A DNA stretch of 49,113 bases from Pseudomonadota bacterium (lineage in GTDB: Bacteria > Pseudomonadota > Alphaproteobacteria > Kiloniellales > J153), in the NCBI GenBank assembly GCA_022572105.1, contig JACZWN010000002.1, positions 1 through 49,113 on the forward strand, given 5' to 3'. A program made the position numbers and the translations under genes. Under the pieces are notes generated by a model that worked only from the letters and a program-made list of their open reading frames with translations, made no database searches and was not told the origin of the DNA. Positions 17,528-26,544 of this stretch are shown piece after piece. Every line of letters begins with the position of its first letter. Position 1 is the stretch's first letter.

Positions 17528-18073
17528 ATGGCTGATCAAACCAAAATCCAGGATCCGCATGTCGAGGACGACGGCGAAGGGGTGGACGGCGAAGCGCCGG
17601 TGCGCGCCCGTCGGTTACCGGGCAAGAAGCTGGTTCTCTTCATCGCGCTCCCGATGCTGCTCATCGGCCTGGCGGGGGCGGGCGTCTATTTCTCGGGGCT
17701 TGCCGATTCGCTGATCGGCGCGGAAGAGAACGAAGGCGAGCTGCTGACCGAGGAGGAAGAGGAAGGCCCCTCCGTCTATTACGAAATTCCCGACATGCTG
17801 GTGAATCTGAACAGCAGTGGCCGCAAGACCGGTTATCTCAAGATTTCGGTCAGCGTGGAGGTCGGTTCCAAGGCGGACGCCGAGAAAATCGAAGCGGTGC
17901 TGCCGCGCATCGTCGACAGCTTCCAGGTCTACCTGCGCGAGCTGCGGGTCGAGGATCTGAGCGGTTCGGCCGGACTCCAGCGCCTGAGGGAGGAATTGCT
18001 CATGCGCGTGAGCAACGCGGCCGCGCCGATCGCTGTAAGGGACATCCTGTTCCGCGAAATGCTTATCCAATGA
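17528..18073 (+). CDS. fliL: Flagellar basal-body-associated protein FliL
   Basis: 181 aa, single TM (LVLFIALPMLLIGLAGAGVYF), then YYEIPDMLVNLNSSGRKTGYLKISVSVEV ... LREELLMRVSN. Confidence 0.88.
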   Translation: MADQTKIQDPHVEDDGEGVDGEAPVRARRLPGKKLVLFIALPMLLIGLAGAGVYFSGLADSLIGAEENEGELLTEEEEEGPSVYYEIPDMLVNLNSSGRKTGYLKISVSVEVGSKADAEKIEAVLPRIVDSFQVYLRELRVEDLSGSAGLQRLREELLMRVSNAAAPIAVRDILFREMLIQ

Positions 18074-18080
18074 CGAACGA

Positions 18081-19187
18081 ATGATGGCGGAAGAACCGGA
18101 AAACCAGGAATCGGAGGACGAAGGCGACCAGGAAACCATGCTTGCCGAATGGGAGGCCATGGCGGACGAGGGCGACGAAACGGAGGGCGAGACAGACGCC
18201 GCAAGCCTGGGCTCGACCCGTGTCCTCGATCAGGACGAAATCGACAGTTTGCTCGGCGTCGACGATGATGGCAGCGGCGACGGGGACAAGTCGGGCATTC
18301 AGGCGATCCTCAATTCCGCGCTCGTATCCTACGAGCGCTTGCCGATGCTCGAGGTCGTATTCGACCGCCTGGTCCGCATGATGTCCACGTCCTTGCGCAA
18401 CTTCACTTCGGACAACGTCGAGGTGAGTCTGGACAACATCAGCTCGGCGCGGTTCGGAGACTACCTGAATTCGATCCCGCTGCCGGCCATGCTCGCGGTC
18501 TTCAAGGCGGAGGAATGGGACAACTTCGGCCTCATGACGGTGGACAGCGCGCTCATTTACTCGATCGTCGACGTGCTGCTCGGCGGCCGGCGCGGGACCG
18601 CTGCCATGCGCATCGAGGGGCGGCCCTATACCACGATCGAGCGCAACCTGGTCCAACGCATGGTGCATGTGGTCCTGGGCGATCTCTCGGCCGCCTTCGA
18701 CCCGCTTTCGCCGACCACCTTCCGTTTCGAACGCCTGGAGACCAACCCGCGCTTCGCCGCCATCGCGCGCGGCGCGAACGCCACGGTGGTGGTCACGTTG
18801 CGCGTCGACATGGAGGACCGCGGCGGGCGCATCGAGTTGCTCATTCCCTACGCGACGCTGGAGCCGGTGCGCGAGCTGCTGCTTCAAATGTTCATGGGCG
18901 AGAAGTTCGGTCGCGACTCGATCTGGGAAGGCCATCTGACGGCCGAGCTGTGGCAGACCGAGATCGGGCTGGAGGCGGTCCTCGACCAGGTCGAGCTGAA
19001 CCTGCGCGACGTTCTGAACTGGACCGAGGGCAGCCACCTCGAGTTGAACTCCACGCCCTCGTCCAAGGTCATCATGCGGTGCGGCGAGATTCCCATGTTC
19101 ACGGGCTTCATGGGCCGCAAGGGGGGGCACATCGCGGTCCGGATCGCGGACAAGGTGATTCGTGAGTCGGGCTCCGACAGCGAGTGA
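18081..19187 (+). CDS. fliM: Flagellar motor switch protein FliM
   Basis: 368 aa. Acidic N-terminus with LDQDEIDSLLG, then the FliM middle and C-terminal domains (RFGDYLNSIPLPAMLAVFKAEEWDNFGLMTVD ... IMRCGEIPMFTGFMGRKGGHIAVRI). Confidence 0.9.
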   Translation: MMAEEPENQESEDEGDQETMLAEWEAMADEGDETEGETDAASLGSTRVLDQDEIDSLLGVDDDGSGDGDKSGIQAILNSALVSYERLPMLEVVFDRLVRMMSTSLRNFTSDNVEVSLDNISSARFGDYLNSIPLPAMLAVFKAEEWDNFGLMTVDSALIYSIVDVLLGGRRGTAAMRIEGRPYTTIERNLVQRMVHVVLGDLSAAFDPLSPTTFRFERLETNPRFAAIARGANATVVVTLRVDMEDRGGRIELLIPYATLEPVRELLLQMFMGEKFGRDSIWEGHLTAELWQTEIGLEAVLDQVELNLRDVLNWTEGSHLELNSTPSSKVIMRCGEIPMFTGFMGRKGGHIAVRIADKVIRESGSDSE

Positions 19188-19771
19188 GCCTGACCATGGA
19201 CATCTCGCTCATCCTCGACGCCATCGTCGCGGTTCTCTTGATAACGACCATCGGCTTCGCGGTGGTCTTGAACCGGAGGCTCGGCGTGCTGCGCAACGCG
19301 AAGTCCGAGATCGAGGCGCTGATTGCCCAATTCGCCGAATCCACCGACAAGGCGGGCAGCGGCATCGAATTGCTGAAGGACGAGACCAAGCGCTCGGGCG
19401 AGGCGCTGCAGGGTAAGCTGGATGCCGCCCGCGCCTTGGTTGACGACTTGGCCTTTCTCCTCGAAAGGGGGAGCAGCCTGGCCGACCGTCTGGACGGTGC
19501 TGTCGGCGCGGCGCGGGCAAAAATCGCGACCGGTGGCGCGTCCAAGCGCGCTCAAGGCGCGCGGCACCCGGGGCGGCAGAGTTCGGTTACACCGGTCGGC
19601 GCCGATGGCAAGCCGGGAGATAACGCAAACACATCGGCCGGTGCTGACAGCGGGCCGGGCGACACCGCAAGCAGCGGCGCTCTTCCCGATAGGCCCGGGC
19701 CGGACTCCGGCGCGCGGGACCTGTCCGCGCAGGAGTCGGATTTGCTGAAAGCCCTGCAAGGGATGCGGTGA
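19184..19771 (+). CDS. Bitopic membrane / coiled-coil / Pro-Gly-rich protein, PflI-like by architecture and synteny (uncertain)
   Basis: N-terminal TM ILDAIVAVLLITTIGFAVVL, a helical middle and a low-complexity C-terminus. The tracked start is GTG and overlaps the fliM stop. An alternative ATG lies at 19196. Confidence 0.55.
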   Translation: MSLTMDISLILDAIVAVLLITTIGFAVVLNRRLGVLRNAKSEIEALIAQFAESTDKAGSGIELLKDETKRSGEALQGKLDAARALVDDLAFLLERGSSLADRLDGAVGAARAKIATGGASKRAQGARHPGRQSSVTPVGADGKPGDNANTSAGADSGPGDTASSGALPDRPGPDSGARDLSAQESDLLKALQGMR

Positions 19772-19801
19772 TCGCTGCGCGGCGGGAGGAAATATTTTAC
19801 C

Positions 19802-20532
19802 ATGCGTTTACGTCTATTGCCGGTTCTCATCATCACCGCCTTGATCGCGCTGACCGTTCGGGTCGGCGATCTTTGGCAGGGATTGGGCTCCATGGCCCAG
19901 GCCCAGACGGCGTCGCAGGCCGAGACCAAGGCCGCCAAGACCACGGCCGCCAGACCACGGCCGCCAAGACCACGGCCACCAAGACCACAGCTACTGGGCA
20001 AGCCAAGCGCGGCGCGCGAACGCCCATACGGCGGCCAAAGGACGGAGAGACCGTTTATTCCAACGCCCCCACGCCCGCCGAGGTCGACTCCCTTCGGGTC
20101 CTGGATATGCCGGCGGACCCCTTCTCGATGACCGACGAGGAGATCGACCTTCTCCAGGCCTTGGCCGAACGGCGCCGGGAACTAGATCTGCGCGCCCGTC
20201 GGCTGGAGCAGCGCGAGATCTTGCTGCGGGCGGTCGAGCAGCGCATCGAGGAGAAAGCGGGCGGACTGAGGGTGCTGCTGAAGCAGCAGGAGGAGCAGAC
20301 CGACGATCAGTACAAGAGTCTGGTGAAGATTTACGAAAGCATGAAGCCCAAGGATGCCGCGCGGATCTTCGAGGAAATGGATCTGGCGGTCCTGATGCCG
20401 GTGGTCGAGCGGATGAAGGAACGCAAGACCGCGCCGATCCTGGCCAAGATGAATCCGGTCAAGGCGACGGCCATAATCACCCAGCTCGCCCAGCGCCGTA
20501 AAGCGCCGACCGAAAACGCCGAAAAGCAATAA
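19802..20532 (+). CDS. motE: MotE-like protein (MgtE_N-type C-terminal domain) interrupted by an apparent 1-nt frameshift near 19952
   Basis: Frame 2 from the ATG at 19802 gives the membrane anchor MRLRLLPVLIITALIALTVRVGDLW. Frame 1 carries the conserved part: FSMTDEEIDLLQALAERRRELDLRARRLEQRE...YESMKPKDAARIFEEMDLAVLMPVVERMKERKTAPILAKMNP. The frames meet in a 15-bp repeat array with one 14-nt unit. The tracked ORF 19768..20532 has an implausible N-terminus. Confidence 0.7.
19919..19992. repeat. Degenerate 15-bp tandem repeat array (5 units) with one 14-nt unit
   Basis: GCCGAGACCAAGGCC / GCCAAGACCACGGCC / GCC-AGACCACGGCC (14 nt, 19949..19962) / GCCAAGACCACGGCC / ACCAAGACCACAGCT. Confidence 0.95.
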
Positions 20533-20660: not shown

Positions 20661-21050
20661 ATGGCTGGCGTCAACAAGAACATGCCGATTCTCATCGTGG
20701 ATGACTACAAAACCATGCTGAGAATCATCCGCAATCTGCTCAAGCAGCTCGGCTTCAACAACGTGGACGAGGCCATTGACGGCAGCTCGGCCCTGCAGAA
20801 GCTTCGCGACAAGGACTGCGGCCTGATCATCTCCGACTGGAACATGGAGCCGATGAGTGGCCTTCAGTTGCTCAAGGAGGTTCGGAAAGACGTCAAGCTC
20901 AAGGAGCTTCCGTTCATCATGATCACGGCCGAGAGCAAGAGCGAGAACGTGATCGCCGCCAAGGAAGCCGGCGTCAGCAACTACATCGTCAAGCCGTTCA
21001 ATGCCGCGACCCTGAAGGGCAAGCTGAACACGGTTCTCGGCAGTTTCTAA
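20661..21050 (+). CDS. cheY: Chemotaxis response regulator CheY
   Basis: 129 aa. ILIVDDYKTMLRIIRNLL ... LIISDWNMEPMSGLQLLKEVR ... FIMITAES ... AGVSNYIVKPFNAATL. Confidence 0.92.
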   Translation: MAGVNKNMPILIVDDYKTMLRIIRNLLKQLGFNNVDEAIDGSSALQKLRDKDCGLIISDWNMEPMSGLQLLKEVRKDVKLKELPFIMITAESKSENVIAAKEAGVSNYIVKPFNAATLKGKLNTVLGSF

Positions 21051-21062
21051 GGGGCCCCGCTC

Positions 21063-21725
21063 ATGGCGCTGCCGACCCTCAACCAGGAAATTGAGCAGCA
21101 GCTCCACGACCTGTCCCGGACCGGATCCTGCATCGACCCCAAGGACATCCTCGAGGTCGTCGAGAGCATCATGGTCTCGATCTCGGGCGACCACGCGAGC
21201 CTGAACCACCGCCTGCATGCCGACATCGAGGCGCTGGCCAACTACATCAACGCCGCCAAGGCCGAGATCTCGGATATCAAGGCCGACAAGATCAACAGGG
21301 AATTCCTGCCCGAGGCCAGCGACCAGTTGATCGCCATCGTCGGAGCCACCGAGCAGGCCACCAACGACATCTTCGAAGCGGTCGAGTTAATCGAGGAATT
21401 GACGGAAAAGATGACCGCGGAAACGGCCGAGCGGGTGACCGAGGCGGTCACGCGCGTCTATGAGGCCTGCAGTTTTCAGGACATCACCGGTCAGCGCGTT
21501 TCCAAGGTGGTCACGGCGTTGCAAAACGTCGAGACCAAGGTCCATGCGCTGCTCCAGGCCTTTGGCGAGGAGAGCGGGGCCGAAGGGCGCGCGGCTGCGC
21601 CCGACACCGGTGTCGACGGCGCGACCCCGGCGTCCTCGGACGAACATCTGATGACCGGCCCGCAGATGCCGGGTGAGGGCAACAGCCAGGACGACATCGA
21701 CGCCCTTCTGGCCAACTTCGATTGA
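21063..21725 (+). CDS. cheZ: CheY-P phosphatase CheZ
   Basis: Catalytic helix motif ACSFQDITGQRVSKV (compare FQDLTGQ) and a C-terminal CheY-binding-like peptide SQDDIDALLANFD. Immediately downstream of cheY. Confidence 0.8.
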   Translation: MALPTLNQEIEQQLHDLSRTGSCIDPKDILEVVESIMVSISGDHASLNHRLHADIEALANYINAAKAEISDIKADKINREFLPEASDQLIAIVGATEQATNDIFEAVELIEELTEKMTAETAERVTEAVTRVYEACSFQDITGQRVSKVVTALQNVETKVHALLQAFGEESGAEGRAAAPDTGVDGATPASSDEHLMTGPQMPGEGNSQDDIDALLANFD

Positions 21726-21731
21726 TCCATC

Positions 21732-22427
21732 ATGACCGCTGCGGTACCCACCGGCCGCGACCGCGAGGCCAGCAGCAACATCGTGCCGCTGCTCAGCCTG
21801 ATGCTCATCCTGCTCGCCTTTTTCATCCTGTTGAACAGCCTGTCGGAGTTCGAGGCGGACAAAACCCAAGCCGTCATCGAAAGCGTCAACCGGGCCTTCA
21901 ACGGCAAGATCGAATCGGGGGACCGGACTCCGGCCTACAGCGCCACGCTCGGCGCGCTGCCCGAGGCCGAGGCCAAGATGCGGGAGGTCGGCAGCCTGTT
22001 CGAGGCGATCGTTCCCTCCGCGCGGGTCAAGCGGATCCGGCGCGCCAAGGCGGTTCGCGTGGAGCTGCCCGCGGCCTCCTTTTTCCGACCGGCGGGGGTA
22101 CGGCTGCGTCCGGGCGGTGAATTCCTGATCCAGCGCCTCGCGCGATTGCTCGCGCGTGATCCCCGCGGCGGCCCGAGTTACGACCTGGAGGTCCTGCTCG
22201 GCGTCGGCGCGCCGCCCGCCGGCGGCGCCGGGCCGGTGACGCCCGATCCCCGCTCCCTCGAAGTTCGCCGCGCCGCGCTGCTGGCCCAGCGCCTCGTCGA
22301 AGAGGGCCTGCGCCCTCCAATGCTTTCGATCGGCCTGTTGCCCAGGCAACCGGGGACGCTACGCTTCGTCGTGCGCGTGCGCCGGGATCCGGCCACCTCC
22401 GGGCGCCGCGCTACGGGGGCGGAGTAG
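21732..22427 (+). CDS. MotB-like / OmpA-like protein 1 (conserved TM Asp replaced)
   Basis: TM IVPLLSLMLILLAFFILLNS plus a degenerate OmpA_C-like part VRVELPAASFFRPAGVRLRPGGEFLIQRLARLL. Aligning on AFF puts Ser where MotB has the essential Asp. Confidence 0.65.
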   Translation: MTAAVPTGRDREASSNIVPLLSLMLILLAFFILLNSLSEFEADKTQAVIESVNRAFNGKIESGDRTPAYSATLGALPEAEAKMREVGSLFEAIVPSARVKRIRRAKAVRVELPAASFFRPAGVRLRPGGEFLIQRLARLLARDPRGGPSYDLEVLLGVGAPPAGGAGPVTPDPRSLEVRRAALLAQRLVEEGLRPPMLSIGLLPRQPGTLRFVVRVRRDPATSGRRATGAE

Positions 22428-22432
22428 GGGCC

Positions 22433-23206
22433 ATGGCCGGCCCGCGCCCCGCCAGCCACAGCGACGGTCCCAAAACCGGGGCCGCGTCGTCTTTCCTTCC
22501 CCGGCTCGCGAAACCAGGCTGGGTCGGCTCGGCGAACCAGGCCTGGATGATCACATTCACCGACCTCGTCGCGCTGATGCTGGCGTTCTTCGTGCTGCTC
22601 TTCGCCATGTCGCAGGTCGAGCAGAAAAAATGGCAGGGACTCGTCGATTCGCTGAACGCCGATCTCAACGCCCTCAAGTCGGTCGAGCGCGTCAAGCCGG
22701 CGCTCGATTATCACCCGGAGGACGAAGCGGTCCTCCCCGGCGCCGACCTGGACTATCTGGCGTCCGTGTTGCGCCAGCAAATCGCGGCGCACGCCTTGTT
22801 GGCGCGCGGCACGATCCGACGACTGCCGGACCGCCTGGTCGTCTCCCTGCCGGCCGATCTGCTATTCCGGGCTAATGCCACCACCCTCGCACCCGGGGCC
22901 AGGGACGCGGGCTTCGCGCTCGGCGGGGTGCTGCGCAACCTGAACAACCGGATCGAGGTGGCGGCCCGCGTACGACACAGCGACCGGGCGCACGGGCGGC
23001 GCTCCGACTGGCAACTGGCGCTGGCCCGCGCCGCGCTCTTCACCGGCATGTTGACGCGCGCCGGTTACCGAGGTCCGATCGTAGCGCGCGGCATTGTGGA
23101 GAGCCGCGCCGGGGGGCAGGCGCCCGCGTCGAGCGCGGAGCCTGGCGGGCTCCAGGGCGATCGCCTCGATATCGTGATTCACGAATTTGCCCGGGAGTCG
23201 CAATGA
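22433..23206 (+). CDS. MotB-like / OmpA-like protein 2 (TM Asp conserved)
   Basis: WMITFTDLVALMLAFFVLLFAMS (compare E. coli ADFMTAMMAFFLVMW), then LVVSLPADLLFRANATTLAPGARDAGFALGGVL...SDWQLALARAALFTGMLTRAGY. Confidence 0.7.
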   Translation: MAGPRPASHSDGPKTGAASSFLPRLAKPGWVGSANQAWMITFTDLVALMLAFFVLLFAMSQVEQKKWQGLVDSLNADLNALKSVERVKPALDYHPEDEAVLPGADLDYLASVLRQQIAAHALLARGTIRRLPDRLVVSLPADLLFRANATTLAPGARDAGFALGGVLRNLNNRIEVAARVRHSDRAHGRRSDWQLALARAALFTGMLTRAGYRGPIVARGIVESRAGGQAPASSAEPGGLQGDRLDIVIHEFARESQ

Positions 23207-26200
23207 TGCCCGGGTCGCGCCTGCTTTACCTCGTCCTTGCCGTGCTGGTCGCCGCCGGCGCCCCGGCCGTCGGCGTCTGGGCCGCCGAGCGGGTCGCGGT
23301 GCGGGTCGGCGAGCATCCGGGGTTCAGCCGGATCGTGTTCGACTGGAGCCGGCCCGTGGGCGCGCGCGTCGAGCGGCAAGGGGGGCAAGGGGGATACGTC
23401 GTTCTGCGCTTCGACCGCGTGGGCGAGCTCGACCTCGCGCGCTTCCGGGCCGATCCGCCGCCCGAGGTTTCGCGCATCGCGGCCAGGCCCGAGGGCGACG
23501 GGCTGGTCGTGACCCTGACCGTCGTCCCCGGCGCCAAGACCCGGCTGTTCGAGAGCGAAGGCAAGACCGTCCTCGACGTTCTCAAGCCGGGCACGCTCGA
23601 TGATGCACGGGCCACCACGCCCGAAGACTGGCGCCGCCGCCGAGCGGCCGGGCGGTCCGAGGCGAAGTCGACGCCGGCCCCGGTGCCCGAGCGCCGGCCG
23701 AGCCCGCCCAAGGCCGGGGACGCCGCCGCGGCGCAGGCCGCCAAGGTCGGCGATCCGAAGGCGCGCGCCGGGACGCCGCCCGCGCGCGGCGCCCCAATCT
23801 CGCTTCTACCCCCGGCCACGTCCGAGTCCGAGCCGAAATCCGCCGACCGGTCCGCCGCCCCGGAGAAGGCCCCCGGGAAGGTCTCGGAGAAGGTCTCGGA
23901 AAAGGCCGGGAAAAATGCACCCGGATCGCAGGACGCAAAGGCCAAGACCGTTGCCCCGGCCGCGCCGGCCGAGACCAAAACCAAGGCCGAGACCAAAACC
24001 AAGGTCGGGCCCAAGGCCAAACCCGGTCGGGCGGCCTCGGCCTCGTCGGACAAGCAGCCCCGGGGCACGGTCTCTGCAACGGGCCTGGCGGCCGCCGGGG
24101 TTCCCTCCATGCCAAGCGGCGAAGCGTCCGGCGCGAGTCCGGTGCTGGTCTCCAGCGGCTCCGCGCCGGTCCTGATCGAAACCTCCCCGATGCCCGGCAG
24201 GTCCTTGTCGCGCGGCATCCCGCGGGCGCTGCGCTTCGATTGGCCGGAGGTCACCGCGGCCGCTGCCTTCCGGCGCGGCGGCAAGCTCTGGCTCGTCTTC
24301 GACCGTCCGCCGACCGGCGATCTGGCGGGCGACATCAGTCGGATGGCGCCGGAGCTCGAACCGGTCGAGCAGTTCGAAGTGGCGGGTGCGACGGTCATCC
24401 GCTTTGCCGCACCGGCCATGCTGACCGCCAATCTGCGCCGCGAGAAGGCGGCCTGGATCGTCGATTTGCAGCCTGGGGTTCCCGACGGCGGGACGGAGAT
24501 CGAAGTGCTGGTCGAGGGAAGCGCGGCGCGCGCCCGGGTTGTGTACCGGGTCGAAACGCCCGGACGCATGGTCTCGTTCATCGACCCGGACCTGGGCGAT
24601 CGCTTGATCGTCGTGCCGGTGCCCACCGCCCAACTGGGGCTCCGTGTGACCCGGGAGTTCCCTCAGTTCCGAGTGCTCGCGAGCCATCAGGGCCTGGTTT
24701 TCCAGCCGCTTTCCGAGAGCCTCCAGGTCGAGGTGACGGCGAAGGCCGTGGTGCTGCGCGACCGCGAAGGGTTGATCGTTTCGCGCGGTTCGAGTCTGGC
24801 GCTTTTGAAGTCCAACGTGGCGGCGCCGCGCCGGGGCCCGAGGCTGTTCGATCTCGATGCCTGGCGGCGCGGCGGCGCGGAGCGGTTCCGGGTCAACAAG
24901 CATATGCTGCAAGGGGCGCTCGCCCGGGCGGAGCCCGCGCACGCCGACGCGGCCCGCTTCGAGCTCGCGCGGTTCTACTTCGCCCACGGCCTGGCTTCCG
25001 AGGCGCTTGGCATGTTGCGTCTGGCTGGGCAGACGGATCCGCGCATGGCGTTGGATCCGCGGCTGCGCCTCGTCGAGGGCGCGAGTGAATTTTTGACCGA
25101 CGATCTCGCGGGCGCGGCCGAGGTGCTCTTCGATCCGTCGCTCGCGGGCGAGTGGGAGGCCGATCTATGGCGCGCCGCGCTGGCCGCCGCCCGCCTCGAT
25201 TGGGGTCTCGCCGCGACCGGCTTCGCGCAGACCGAGGCGTTGATCGCGGCCTATCCGCATGCCGTGCGGGTCCGCTTGCGGCTGCTCGCCGCCGAGGCGG
25301 GGCTCGCGGTGGGCGACCATGAGGGCGCCGAGCGCTACCTCGAGGCGGTGCGCCGGGACGATCCGAGCCACACCGAGGAGGCGCAGGTCGCGTTCCTGGT
25401 GGCGCGCCGCCTGCATCTCGATGGCGATACCGAGACCGCGGCCGCGCTGTGGCGAAGAGTGGCGGCGGGCAAGCACGCGTCGTCGCGGATTCGGGCCCGT
25501 CTCGCCTTGCTCGATCTGGCGCTGGAAGACGGCTCGACCACCACCGAACAAGCGATCGAAGAGTTGGAGCGCCTGCGCTTCGCCTGGCGCGGCGACCGCT
25601 TCGAGTTCGCGCTCTTGCAGCGCCTGGGCGATCTCTACGTCCTGCGCGGGGACTACCGAAAGGGGCTGCGCCTGTTGCGCCGCGCGGCCTCGCATACCCA
25701 GAATTCCGAAGTTTCCCGGGCGGCGGCAAGCCGCATGCGCGTGATTTTCACCAATCTCTTCAGCGGCCAGGCGGACGCCAAGCTGCCGCCGTTGAAGGCG
25801 CTCGCGTTGTTCGAGGAGTTCAAGGAGTTGACGCCGCCGGGGCCGAAAGGGGACGAGGTGATCCTCCGCCTCGTGGACCGGTTGGTCGCGGTCGATCTGC
25901 TCGACCGCGCGGCCGGCATCCTCGAATCGCAGGTCGAATACCGGCTTCGGGGAACCGCCAAGGCCCGGGTCGCGGCGCGCCTGGCGTTGGTCCGCCTGTT
26001 GAACCAGGAGCCCGCCAAGGCCGTGGCGGTCCTGAAAGCCAGCGCGCTGCCGGATCTCCCCGACGGCCTGGTCGGTGAGCGCCGCATCCTGCGGACCCGC
26101 GCGCTGCTGCAACTGGACCGGGCGGACGAGGCTCTGGTTTCGCTCGGCACAGACGACAGCGTCGAGGCGCTACGCCTGCGCGCCCAGATCCTTTCGCACC

Positions 26201-26544
26201 AGGAGAACTGGCCGGCCGCGGTGCTCGCGCTCGAGCGCCTGGTGCCGGCGACCCCGCCGTCCGAGCGTCCGTTGCGCGAAGCCGAAAGCGACGCCGTGCT
26301 CGACCTGGCGGTGGCGCTGACCATGGCCGGCGAGCGTGACAAGATCCTGGCGCTGGGGCGGACCTACGAGGACGGCATGTCGCGTGGGCCGAACAAGCAT
26401 GCCTTCGCCCTGCTGGTCGGCGATCTGGAGCCGAACCGGGTCAAGTCGGCCGCCGAGGAATTGGCTCAGGTCGATCAGGTCGAGGCGTTCCTGGCCAGCT
26501 ACCGCAAGCGCACCGGAGCGAGCGGCCAAGCCACTACTCAATAA
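23203..26544 (+). CDS. 1113-aa secreted protein: signal peptide, beta-rich AMIN-like N-module, Pro/Ala/Lys low-complexity linker, large helical TPR-like C-terminal region; function unknown
   Basis: The start overlaps the MotB-like 2 stop (ATGATG/TGA). Signal peptide LLYLVLAVLVAAGAPAVGVWA. FSRIVFDWSRPV...VVLRFDRV...LVVTLTVVPG. Linker with KVSEKVSEK and ETKTKAETKTK repeats. C-terminal ~600 aa are helical with TPR-like A/L/R periodicity. Confidence 0.7.
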   Translation: MMPGSRLLYLVLAVLVAAGAPAVGVWAAERVAVRVGEHPGFSRIVFDWSRPVGARVERQGGQGGYVVLRFDRVGELDLARFRADPPPEVSRIAARPEGDGLVVTLTVVPGAKTRLFESEGKTVLDVLKPGTLDDARATTPEDWRRRRAAGRSEAKSTPAPVPERRPSPPKAGDAAAAQAAKVGDPKARAGTPPARGAPISLLPPATSESEPKSADRSAAPEKAPGKVSEKVSEKAGKNAPGSQDAKAKTVAPAAPAETKTKAETKTKVGPKAKPGRAASASSDKQPRGTVSATGLAAAGVPSMPSGEASGASPVLVSSGSAPVLIETSPMPGRSLSRGIPRALRFDWPEVTAAAAFRRGGKLWLVFDRPPTGDLAGDISRMAPELEPVEQFEVAGATVIRFAAPAMLTANLRREKAAWIVDLQPGVPDGGTEIEVLVEGSAARARVVYRVETPGRMVSFIDPDLGDRLIVVPVPTAQLGLRVTREFPQFRVLASHQGLVFQPLSESLQVEVTAKAVVLRDREGLIVSRGSSLALLKSNVAAPRRGPRLFDLDAWRRGGAERFRVNKHMLQGALARAEPAHADAARFELARFYFAHGLASEALGMLRLAGQTDPRMALDPRLRLVEGASEFLTDDLAGAAEVLFDPSLAGEWEADLWRAALAAARLDWGLAATGFAQTEALIAAYPHAVRVRLRLLAAEAGLAVGDHEGAERYLEAVRRDDPSHTEEAQVAFLVARRLHLDGDTETAAALWRRVAAGKHASSRIRARLALLDLALEDGSTTTEQAIEELERLRFAWRGDRFEFALLQRLGDLYVLRGDYRKGLRLLRRAASHTQNSEVSRAAASRMRVIFTNLFSGQADAKLPPLKALALFEEFKELTPPGPKGDEVILRLVDRLVAVDLLDRAAGILESQVEYRLRGTAKARVAARLALVRLLNQEPAKAVAVLKASALPDLPDGLVGERRILRTRALLQLDRADEALVSLGTDDSVEALRLRAQILSHQENWPAAVLALERLVPATPPSERPLREAESDAVLDLAVALTMAGERDKILALGRTYEDGMSRGPNKHAFALLVGDLEPNRVKSAAEELAQVDQVEAFLASYRKRTGASGQATTQ

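Follow-up and report, generated by a model that had tools for sequence, protein, structure and literature searches.

An aspartate-less MotB paralogue encoded in tandem with a MotB-family subunit in alphaproteobacterial flagellar gene clusters

Two MotB-family genes in tandem

The DNA considered here (hereafter the window: the whole stretch of 49,113 nucleotides, positions 1 to 49,113 of contig JACZWN010000002.1, forward strand, GenBank assembly GCA_022572105.1) belongs to a Pseudomonadota bacterium of the alphaproteobacterial order Kiloniellales and carries a flagellar motor operon that includes two adjacent genes, ORF1 and ORF2. An earlier note, made from the letters of the sequence, had described the two products as MotB-like proteins with a MotB-type transmembrane (TM) segment and an OmpA-like domain, the first of them with Ser in the place of the ion-binding Asp. 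Profile searches and structure predictions agree with this description on both counts, and are suggestive of ORF2 being a working MotB with which ORF1 is constantly associated.

21732..22427, plus strand: ORF1, aspartate-less MotB paralogue, 231 aa; MotB_plug 27.2 bits; TM helix, post-TM helix and degenerate OmpA-like domain
21780..21851, plus strand: ORF1 TM segment, residues 17-40; nearly invariant LLSLxLILLAFFILLN, with Ser22 (codon 21795-21797) at the Asp position
22433..23206, plus strand: ORF2, MotB-family B subunit, 257 aa; MotB_plug 59.9 bits; Asp44 codon 22562-22564; peptidoglycan motif degenerate

Both proteins score above the gathering cut-off of the Pfam family MotB_plug (PF13677; 24 bits), ORF2 over profile positions 14-56 (E 1.7e-16) and ORF1 over positions 25-58 (E 2.9e-6). 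Asp44 of ORF2 falls on profile position 24; in ORF1 the first matched residue is 23, on position 25, which makes Ser22 the equivalent of the aspartate. The same register was obtained when the ORF1 and ORF2 family alignments were compared with hhalign, which set S22 opposite D44 with 96% probability (E 3e-9) over 188 columns spanning the helix and the periplasmic domain. The best score of ORF1 against the NCBIfam MotB, MotS and MotD equivalogs was 22 bits, below cut-off, and that of ORF2 was 53 bits against MotS (NF005382), below the cut-off of 264. AlphaFold models of ORF1 and ORF2, computed as monomers only, have a mean predicted local distance difference test score (pLDDT) of 73.5 and consist of a long N-terminal helix followed by an alpha/beta domain that is mostly above 90, the periplasmic domain of ORF1 (residues 77-216) being predicted at pLDDT >90. 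The best PDB matches returned by Foldseek for both models were OmpA-like domains (including 2zvz, 2zov, 3s0h, 3wpw and 9ljm), with the periplasmic domains of MotB (Salmonella, Helicobacter), PomB (Vibrio) and MotS (Bacillus) in their number.

The loss of the aspartate is a trait of the ORF1 family. Searching 1.84 billion representative proteins with an ORF1 profile yielded 1105 clusters (50% identity) at E 1e-10 or better; Ser occupies the Asp position in 75 of 76 close ORF1 homologues, and the best 144 representative clusters have there Ser (101), Gly (20), Ala (17), Pro (1) or Cys (1), and Asp or Glu in none. Against a mean column identity of 43% for the family, the TM helix hardly varies. 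Over the whole ORF1 clade, as sampled in our tree and loci, the position is held by S, A, G, T or K, plus D twice. The two Asp-keeping members (L075:8777-9556, from Radicibacter daui, and L076:9017-9700) have the helix GWLLTFSDLVCLMLAFFVLLNAFS, and the second lies in divergent orientation beside a short motA-motB pair. In four loci from Geminicoccaceae and related metagenome-assembled genomes (L032, L035, L042 and L043), Lys lies exactly at the Asp-equivalent position (LKLMLILLAFF), and many ORF1 proteins of the Kiloniellaceae type have Lys or Asn two residues past it, where the window ORF1 has Met. A buried Lys of ORF1 beside the Asp of a partner hints at a direct contact between the ORF1 and ORF2 helices. 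An inspection by eye of covariation between the two helices in some 56 pairs was dropped as too confounded by phylogeny. As to the peptidoglycan-binding motifs, neither the Asp of GHxD nor the Arg of LSxxRA was present in any ORF1 scanned.

ORF2, on the other hand, keeps the aspartate: the Asp44-equivalent residue is D in all 38 ORF2 orthologues examined. The ORF2 family profile matches the full-length MotB and PomB proteins of solved stator complexes through the TM segment, the plug and the OmpA-like domain (6ysf, E 7.5e-27), and also matches MotB-C and PomB-C by sequence. Its helix, WMITFTDLVALMLAFFVLLFAMS, belongs with those of PomB, MotS and Bacillus MotB, and not with the E. coli kind encoded elsewhere in this genome (contig C247, see below), AWKVAYADFVTAMMAFFLLLW. 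Distant ORF2 orthologues display a textbook GH(A/T)DP...SNWELSLxRA motif, the GH(A/T)D of which stands opposite ARVR of the window ORF2 in the family alignment. In the subclade of the window the conserved loop Asp is thus lost, close relatives included, and the Arg of LSxxRA is retained, while both peptidoglycan residues are present in 12 of the 21 ORF2 orthologues with a readable motif scan. The degenerate peptidoglycan signature reported in the earlier note is therefore accurate for both window proteins, yet many ORF2 orthologues are canonical.

The pair is widespread. A scan of one genome per species yielded 37 loci from Kiloniellaceae, Pelagibius, Rhodovibrionaceae, Limimonas, Rhodospirillaceae and Geminicoccaceae, all with an ORF1-type helix, directly followed by an ORF2-type helix in 36 (the exception is cut by a contig end). 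A large TPR gene comes next in 34, the contig ending first in the other three, and none of the 37 has a motA within 8 kb of the pair. In an even draw of 401 alphaproteobacterial genomes, the ORF1 profile matched 123, about 100 of them (about a quarter of the sample) at E 1e-10 or better. Twenty regions fetched from different families of this class-wide sample all contained ORF1-ORF2, continued by the TPR gene in 19, mostly downstream of fliL-fliM-pflI-motE with or without cheY-cheZ. Variable synteny, which the earlier note had named as an argument against a motility function, was accordingly not what we found, since pair and order are constant in both sets of loci wherever the contig is long enough. 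Exact look-ups further identified carriers among Azospirillum species, Constrictibacter, Radicibacter daui and Sneathiella limimaris.

Phylogenetic analysis resolved three clades supported by the Shimodaira-Hasegawa-like approximate likelihood ratio test (SH-aLRT): a monophyletic ORF1 clade (99), a monophyletic ORF2 clade (94) and the long E. coli-type MotB proteins (100), the closest relatives of the window coming from identical loci in the ORF1 and ORF2 clades. ORF1 is probably an ancient MotB duplicate in which a small residue has taken the place of the Asp. The Asp-bearing L076 protein is sister to all remaining ORF1 sequences, consistent with an Asp-bearing ancestor of ORF1 and an early loss. 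A different kind of MotB duplication is found at L091 (G289:C1:3617800-3621500), where two long motB genes, both with the Asp, come after an E. coli-type motA; the genome concerned has ORF1 and ORF2 as well.

The ORF1-ORF2 pair seems to be undescribed. Full-text literature searches (Asp-less or paired MotB, MotB heterodimers, and the stators of Azospirillum, Rhodospirillum and Magnetospirillum) found no description of ORF1, and the papers on MotK, FssB and the E-ring make no mention of a MotB paralogue without the Asp (PMC10954123, PMC7885107, PMC13023049). Homologues of the pair retrieved by exact look-up are publicly annotated as 'hypothetical protein' or 'MotB', those of ORF1 mostly as the former, and a tblastn search of a plasmid collection for annotated relatives returned no match.

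Gene neighbourhood and the large periplasmic protein

The pair lies between the chemotaxis genes cheY-cheZ and a gene for a 1113-aa protein, within the following co-oriented series.

17528..18073, plus strand: fliL, which opens the co-oriented motor operon; Pfam FliL PF03748, E 2.4e-19
18081..19187, plus strand: fliM; Pfam FliM PF02154, E 1.3e-64, and FliMN_C
19184..19771, plus strand: pflI-like gene (DUF6468) between fliL/fliM and motE; Pfam DUF6468, E 2.5e-18
19768..20532, plus strand: motE / FlgY-type gene (E-ring protein family); Pfam MgtE_N, E 6.8e-6; weak NCBIfam collar_FlbB, E 2.7e-5
20661..21050, plus strand: cheY; NCBIfam CheY NF007901, 163 bits (below the cut-off of 189); Pfam Response_reg, E 4e-28
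21063..21725, plus strand: cheZ; Pfam CheZ PF04344, E 6.4e-16
23203..26544, plus strand: putative periplasmic scaffold of the MotK/FssB type, 1113 aa; signal peptide, putative AMIN-like beta domain, linker of low complexity, TPR region

Six nucleotides separate cheZ from ORF1 and five separate ORF1 from ORF2, with GGAG just upstream, and the stop of ORF2 overlaps the start of the 1113-aa gene in ATGA. The link to this periplasmic protein proposed earlier is thus upheld, both by the overlap and by the conserved gene order. The motE-type ORF has a GTG start, and a signal-anchor-like N-terminus (MRLRLLPVLIITALIALTV...) occurs in another frame just downstream (19802..20131), suggestive of a frameshift or assembly error within the gene.

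The 1113-aa protein has a signal peptide, matches to Pfam TPR_19 and a weak AMIN-like match. When the N-termini of its orthologues were compared with the AMIN-like family PF24837, all eight matched, one above cut-off and the rest sub-threshold. From these largely sub-threshold AMIN matches together with synteny, the protein appears to be of the MotK/FssB kind. MotK of the Cereibacter sphaeroides Fla2 system is encoded in the order fliL-pflI-motE-motA-motK, is required for rotation and binds MotE and MotB2; MotE likewise binds MotB2 and is required for rotation (PMC10954123). In that report, pflI occupies the slot of the DUF6468 gene of the window, on the fliL/fliM side and before motE. Caulobacter FssB (CC_2058) is needed for stator activity, and its loss paralyses the flagellum (PMC7885107). 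MotE, FlbB and FlgY have been equated as the E-ring protein, and MotK has been likened structurally to the PflA spoke (PMC13023049).

The motA genes of the genome and the candidate A subunit

The statement of the earlier note that the pair comes with no motA applies to the window, from which motA is absent, and not to the genome, which has a single flagellar gene set and two flagellar motA genes. These map to two contigs (C218 and C247) other than that of the window in a source assembly of 294 contigs that is 91% complete.

C218:5533-6375 (L005:1378-2220), minus strand: orphan PomA/MotP-type motA, 280 aa; NF006527, 239 bits
C247 (L001:557-1423 and 1453-2439): E. coli-type motA-motB operon; NCBIfam equivalog cut-offs passed

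The C247 operon scored 384 bits against TIGR03818 and 279 bits against NF006548 (MotB; cut-off 277). The C218 gene lies in the order fliH-fliN-motA-flbD with no adjoining motB; its score against NF006527 is under the equivalog cut-off and far over that of any non-flagellar model. An assignment to ExbB/TolQ (MotA_ExbB, 92.8 bits) was rejected on the grounds of the PomA/MotP-like NCBIfam match and of the position of the gene between fliN and flbD. Together, the C247 motAB operon and the C218 motA thus make two stator sets for one flagellar gene set.

Of the 103 sampled genomes with ORF1, 98 have an orthologue of the C218 motA at E 1e-55 or better, as do just 15 genomes lacking a clear ORF1 match, eight of which have weak ones. 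To be expected among parts of one flagellar system, this co-occurrence nonetheless singles out the A subunit that is without any other B partner. In complete genomes the orphan motA is usually 20-55 kb away from ORF1-ORF2. Three genomes from different families (G312, G061 and G234) have ORF1 and ORF2 as their sole MotB_plug genes and the orphan PomA-type gene as their sole flagellar motA; in G312 the latter adjoins flbD (L106), and ORF2 keeps a canonical GHTD...SNWELSLGRA.

Two other candidates for the A subunit, orphan MotA_ExbB-like proteins encoded on contigs C1 and C292, were rejected because of their weak similarity to ZorA, their lack of flagellar neighbours and their absence from any flagellar locus. 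They are paralogous proteins of 284 and 247 aa (C1:9925-10779, L007:1459-2313, and C292:6874-7617, L008:1447-2190, both on the minus strand) that match the C-terminal half of the profile only; their neighbours have no family matches, and homologues occur in G312 (L099 and L100). Finally, a genome with ORF1 and ORF2 and no motA (G396) was considered as a possible sign of a MotA-independent function and set aside as uninformative, its flagellar cluster being in decay. At this locus (L103, G396:C1:158000-176000), flgF is in two pieces and the MotK-like gene in three, with no flagellar motA anywhere in the genome. Another genome of this genus, G121, combines an E. coli-type motA adjoining motB with a PomA-type motA.

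A putative stator, its alternatives and known systems

The invariant Asp of ORF2, the match of its family to full-length MotB/PomB proteins, the presence of an orphan motA and the genomes with the pair only make ORF2 most likely the real MotB of this cluster, and we think it probable that ORF2 is the working MotB of a cluster-encoded stator partnered by the orphan PomA-type MotA. Building on the observed homology, folds, residue conservation, synteny and orphan-motA co-occurrence, we infer the motA pairing, a heterodimer and a scaffold contact, from which the following scheme may be drawn. ORF2, which combines a MotB/PomB-type helix bearing the ion-binding Asp with a plug-like helix and an OmpA-like domain, would act as the B subunit, its A subunit being supplied by the orphan PomA/MotP-type motA of the fliH-fliN-motA-flbD operon on C218. 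ORF1 and ORF2 would join a MotA pentamer in a MotA5:ORF2:ORF1 unit endowed with a single Asp, and the periplasmic domain of ORF1 would help dock this unit to the MotK-like scaffold, the product of the gene that overlaps the end of ORF2. Both OmpA-like domains might hold the scaffold, whose AMIN-like domain and MotE contacts would fix the unit, so that the scaffold and MotE would together secure the stators around the motor. Given that the OmpA-like domains of the window lineage lack the peptidoglycan-binding Asp, wall anchoring would probably proceed via the AMIN-like domain of the scaffold. The E. coli-type motAB of C247 would represent a second, independent stator set.

Our confidence is about evenly divided on this favoured reading taken as a whole, with ORF1 and ORF2 as B-type stalk subunits docking to the scaffold. 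The conservation of the ORF1 helix and its constant close pairing with ORF2 suggest that ORF1 is an obligatory partner rather than a plain anchor, and its placement in the second stalk position within the MotA ring is the simplest reading, albeit a tentative one that falls short of an even bet. The proposal at its most specific, that polar flagella of many Alphaproteobacteria including Azospirillum use a naturally asymmetric stator of composition PomA-type MotA5 : MotB1 : MotB'1 with the Asp-less subunit specialised for docking to MotK and MotE, is possible but somewhat doubtful.

Several observations weigh against the scheme. The peptidoglycan motif of ORF2 is degenerate in the window lineage; the ORF1-clade members at L075 and L076 retain the Asp, so that its loss is not universal; and the genes of one flagellar system tend to co-occur anyway, so that the co-occurrence with the orphan motA is no proof of pairing. 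Of 36 near-complete genomes, at least 28 also have an E. coli-type motA and a long motB, mostly adjacent; two stator sets are thus the common state, as in this genome, and the E. coli-type MotAB might be the main stator. Current 5:2 models rely on alternation between two identical Asp residues during rotation of the pentamer, and we found no precedent for a unit with a single Asp, so that ORF1 could sit elsewhere.

In the main rival arrangement, ORF2 would dimerise with itself as a conventional MotB serving the orphan PomA-type MotA, with no ORF1 in the same pentamer. ORF1 would form dimers of its own, either linking the MotK-like scaffold to the membrane as an anchor or adaptor, or competing for MotA as a non-conducting dummy or regulatory stalk. 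The known 5:2 motors are built on homodimers of the B subunit, the periplasmic domain of ORF1 has lost both peptidoglycan-binding residues and diverged far from that of ORF2, and its Asp position varies between clades (S, A, G, T, K), as though nothing beyond lack of charge counted there. We nevertheless view this alternative as rather unlikely, since the near-invariant LLAFFILLN and the MotB_plug match suggest that the ORF1 helix packs in a MotB-like environment, the strict close tandem with ORF2 suggests production in equal amounts, and the Lys that some clades have level with the ORF2 Asp or close to it is hard to fit without an acidic partner. The non-conducting, stator-like or stator-anchoring complex put forward in the earlier note fares less well. 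Under this proposal ORF1 and ORF2 would form a MotA-independent anchor or organiser of stators and rotation would be driven solely by the E. coli-type MotAB of C247, which would agree with the lack of motA in the window, the canonical motAB operon elsewhere, the degenerate peptidoglycan motifs of both proteins in the window lineage and the linkage of the pair to the scaffold gene. It leaves unexplained, however, a buried Asp in 38 of 38 ORF2 orthologues, for which it offers no ion pathway, the location of an orphan PomA-type motA within a core flagellar operon of a genome that offers no other candidate as its B subunit, and the three genomes with neither another MotB-family gene nor an E. coli-type MotAB. 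We deem it improbable, and for ORF2 it is not supported, given the features that mark this protein as a MotB, the tie to the scaffold being the part of the proposal that survives. That the two proteins are ordinary OmpA-family envelope proteins with no motility role, accidentally located in the cluster, is scarcely credible; the prevailing 'hypothetical protein' annotation of ORF1 homologues would suit this view, but both proteins exceed the MotB_plug cut-off, the fliL-fliM-pflI-motE...motK synteny is kept in many alphaproteobacterial families, and in the decaying cluster of G396, where motA is missing, the scaffold gene is broken too.

Should ORF1 indeed share the ring with ORF2 in an asymmetric stator, alternation between two Asp residues would not be an obligatory part of the 5:2 rotary model. 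An obligatory MotB partner devoid of the Asp would thus provide either a natural test of the two-Asp alternation model or a new built-in adaptor or regulator of stators, and the ORF1 family is large, its presence in culturable genera such as Azospirillum making the question directly testable. The annotation of these loci may also be corrected, 'hypothetical protein' and degenerate 'MotB' entries probably belonging with the orphan motA of another operon.

By comparison with MotB, MotS and PomB (Clostridium sporogenes 6ysf, Bacillus subtilis MotB 6ysl and Vibrio PomB 8zyv), ORF2 has the same whole architecture and shares with the short members of this group a short cytoplasmic tail, the W..TF.DL..L.L.FF helix, the Asp, a plug-like helix and the OmpA-like domain. 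ORF1 shares with them the TM/plug profile and the fold, and differs in lacking the Asp and both peptidoglycan-binding residues. Unlike these proteins, ORF2 of the window lineage is without the Asp of GHxD, and neither ORF1 nor ORF2 adjoins its motA, the two genes being instead always paired and then followed by the scaffold gene. The MotK/MotE/MotB2 system of C. sphaeroides and Caulobacter FssB have in common with the window the series fliL-pflI-motE and, after it, a large secreted protein with TPRs and an N-domain that in the window protein is probably AMIN-like. The slot between motE and motK, however, is taken by motA in Rhodobacterales and here by cheY-cheZ and the two MotB paralogues, motA being in the fliN-flbD operon, and an aspartate-less MotB has not been reported in the Rhodobacterales and Caulobacter systems (PMC10954123, PMC7885107).

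The PflA/PflB/FlgY spoke-ring of Campylobacter and Helicobacter (PMC12054838, PMC13023049) is alike in combining an E-ring protein, FlgY (the equivalent of MotE), with TPR spokes to position and retain the stators; it differs in that its rim protein PflB is a TPR protein rather than a MotB paralogue, and in having no second MotB-like subunit. The AglR/AglQ/AglS motor of Myxococcus gliding drives a machine other than a flagellum, AglQ and AglS both possess the conserved TM Asp, and whether they form heterodimers or homodimers is left undecided in the report describing them; the likeness to the stator proposed here lies in the use of one MotA-like protein with two different MotB/TolR-like partners (PMC9389320).

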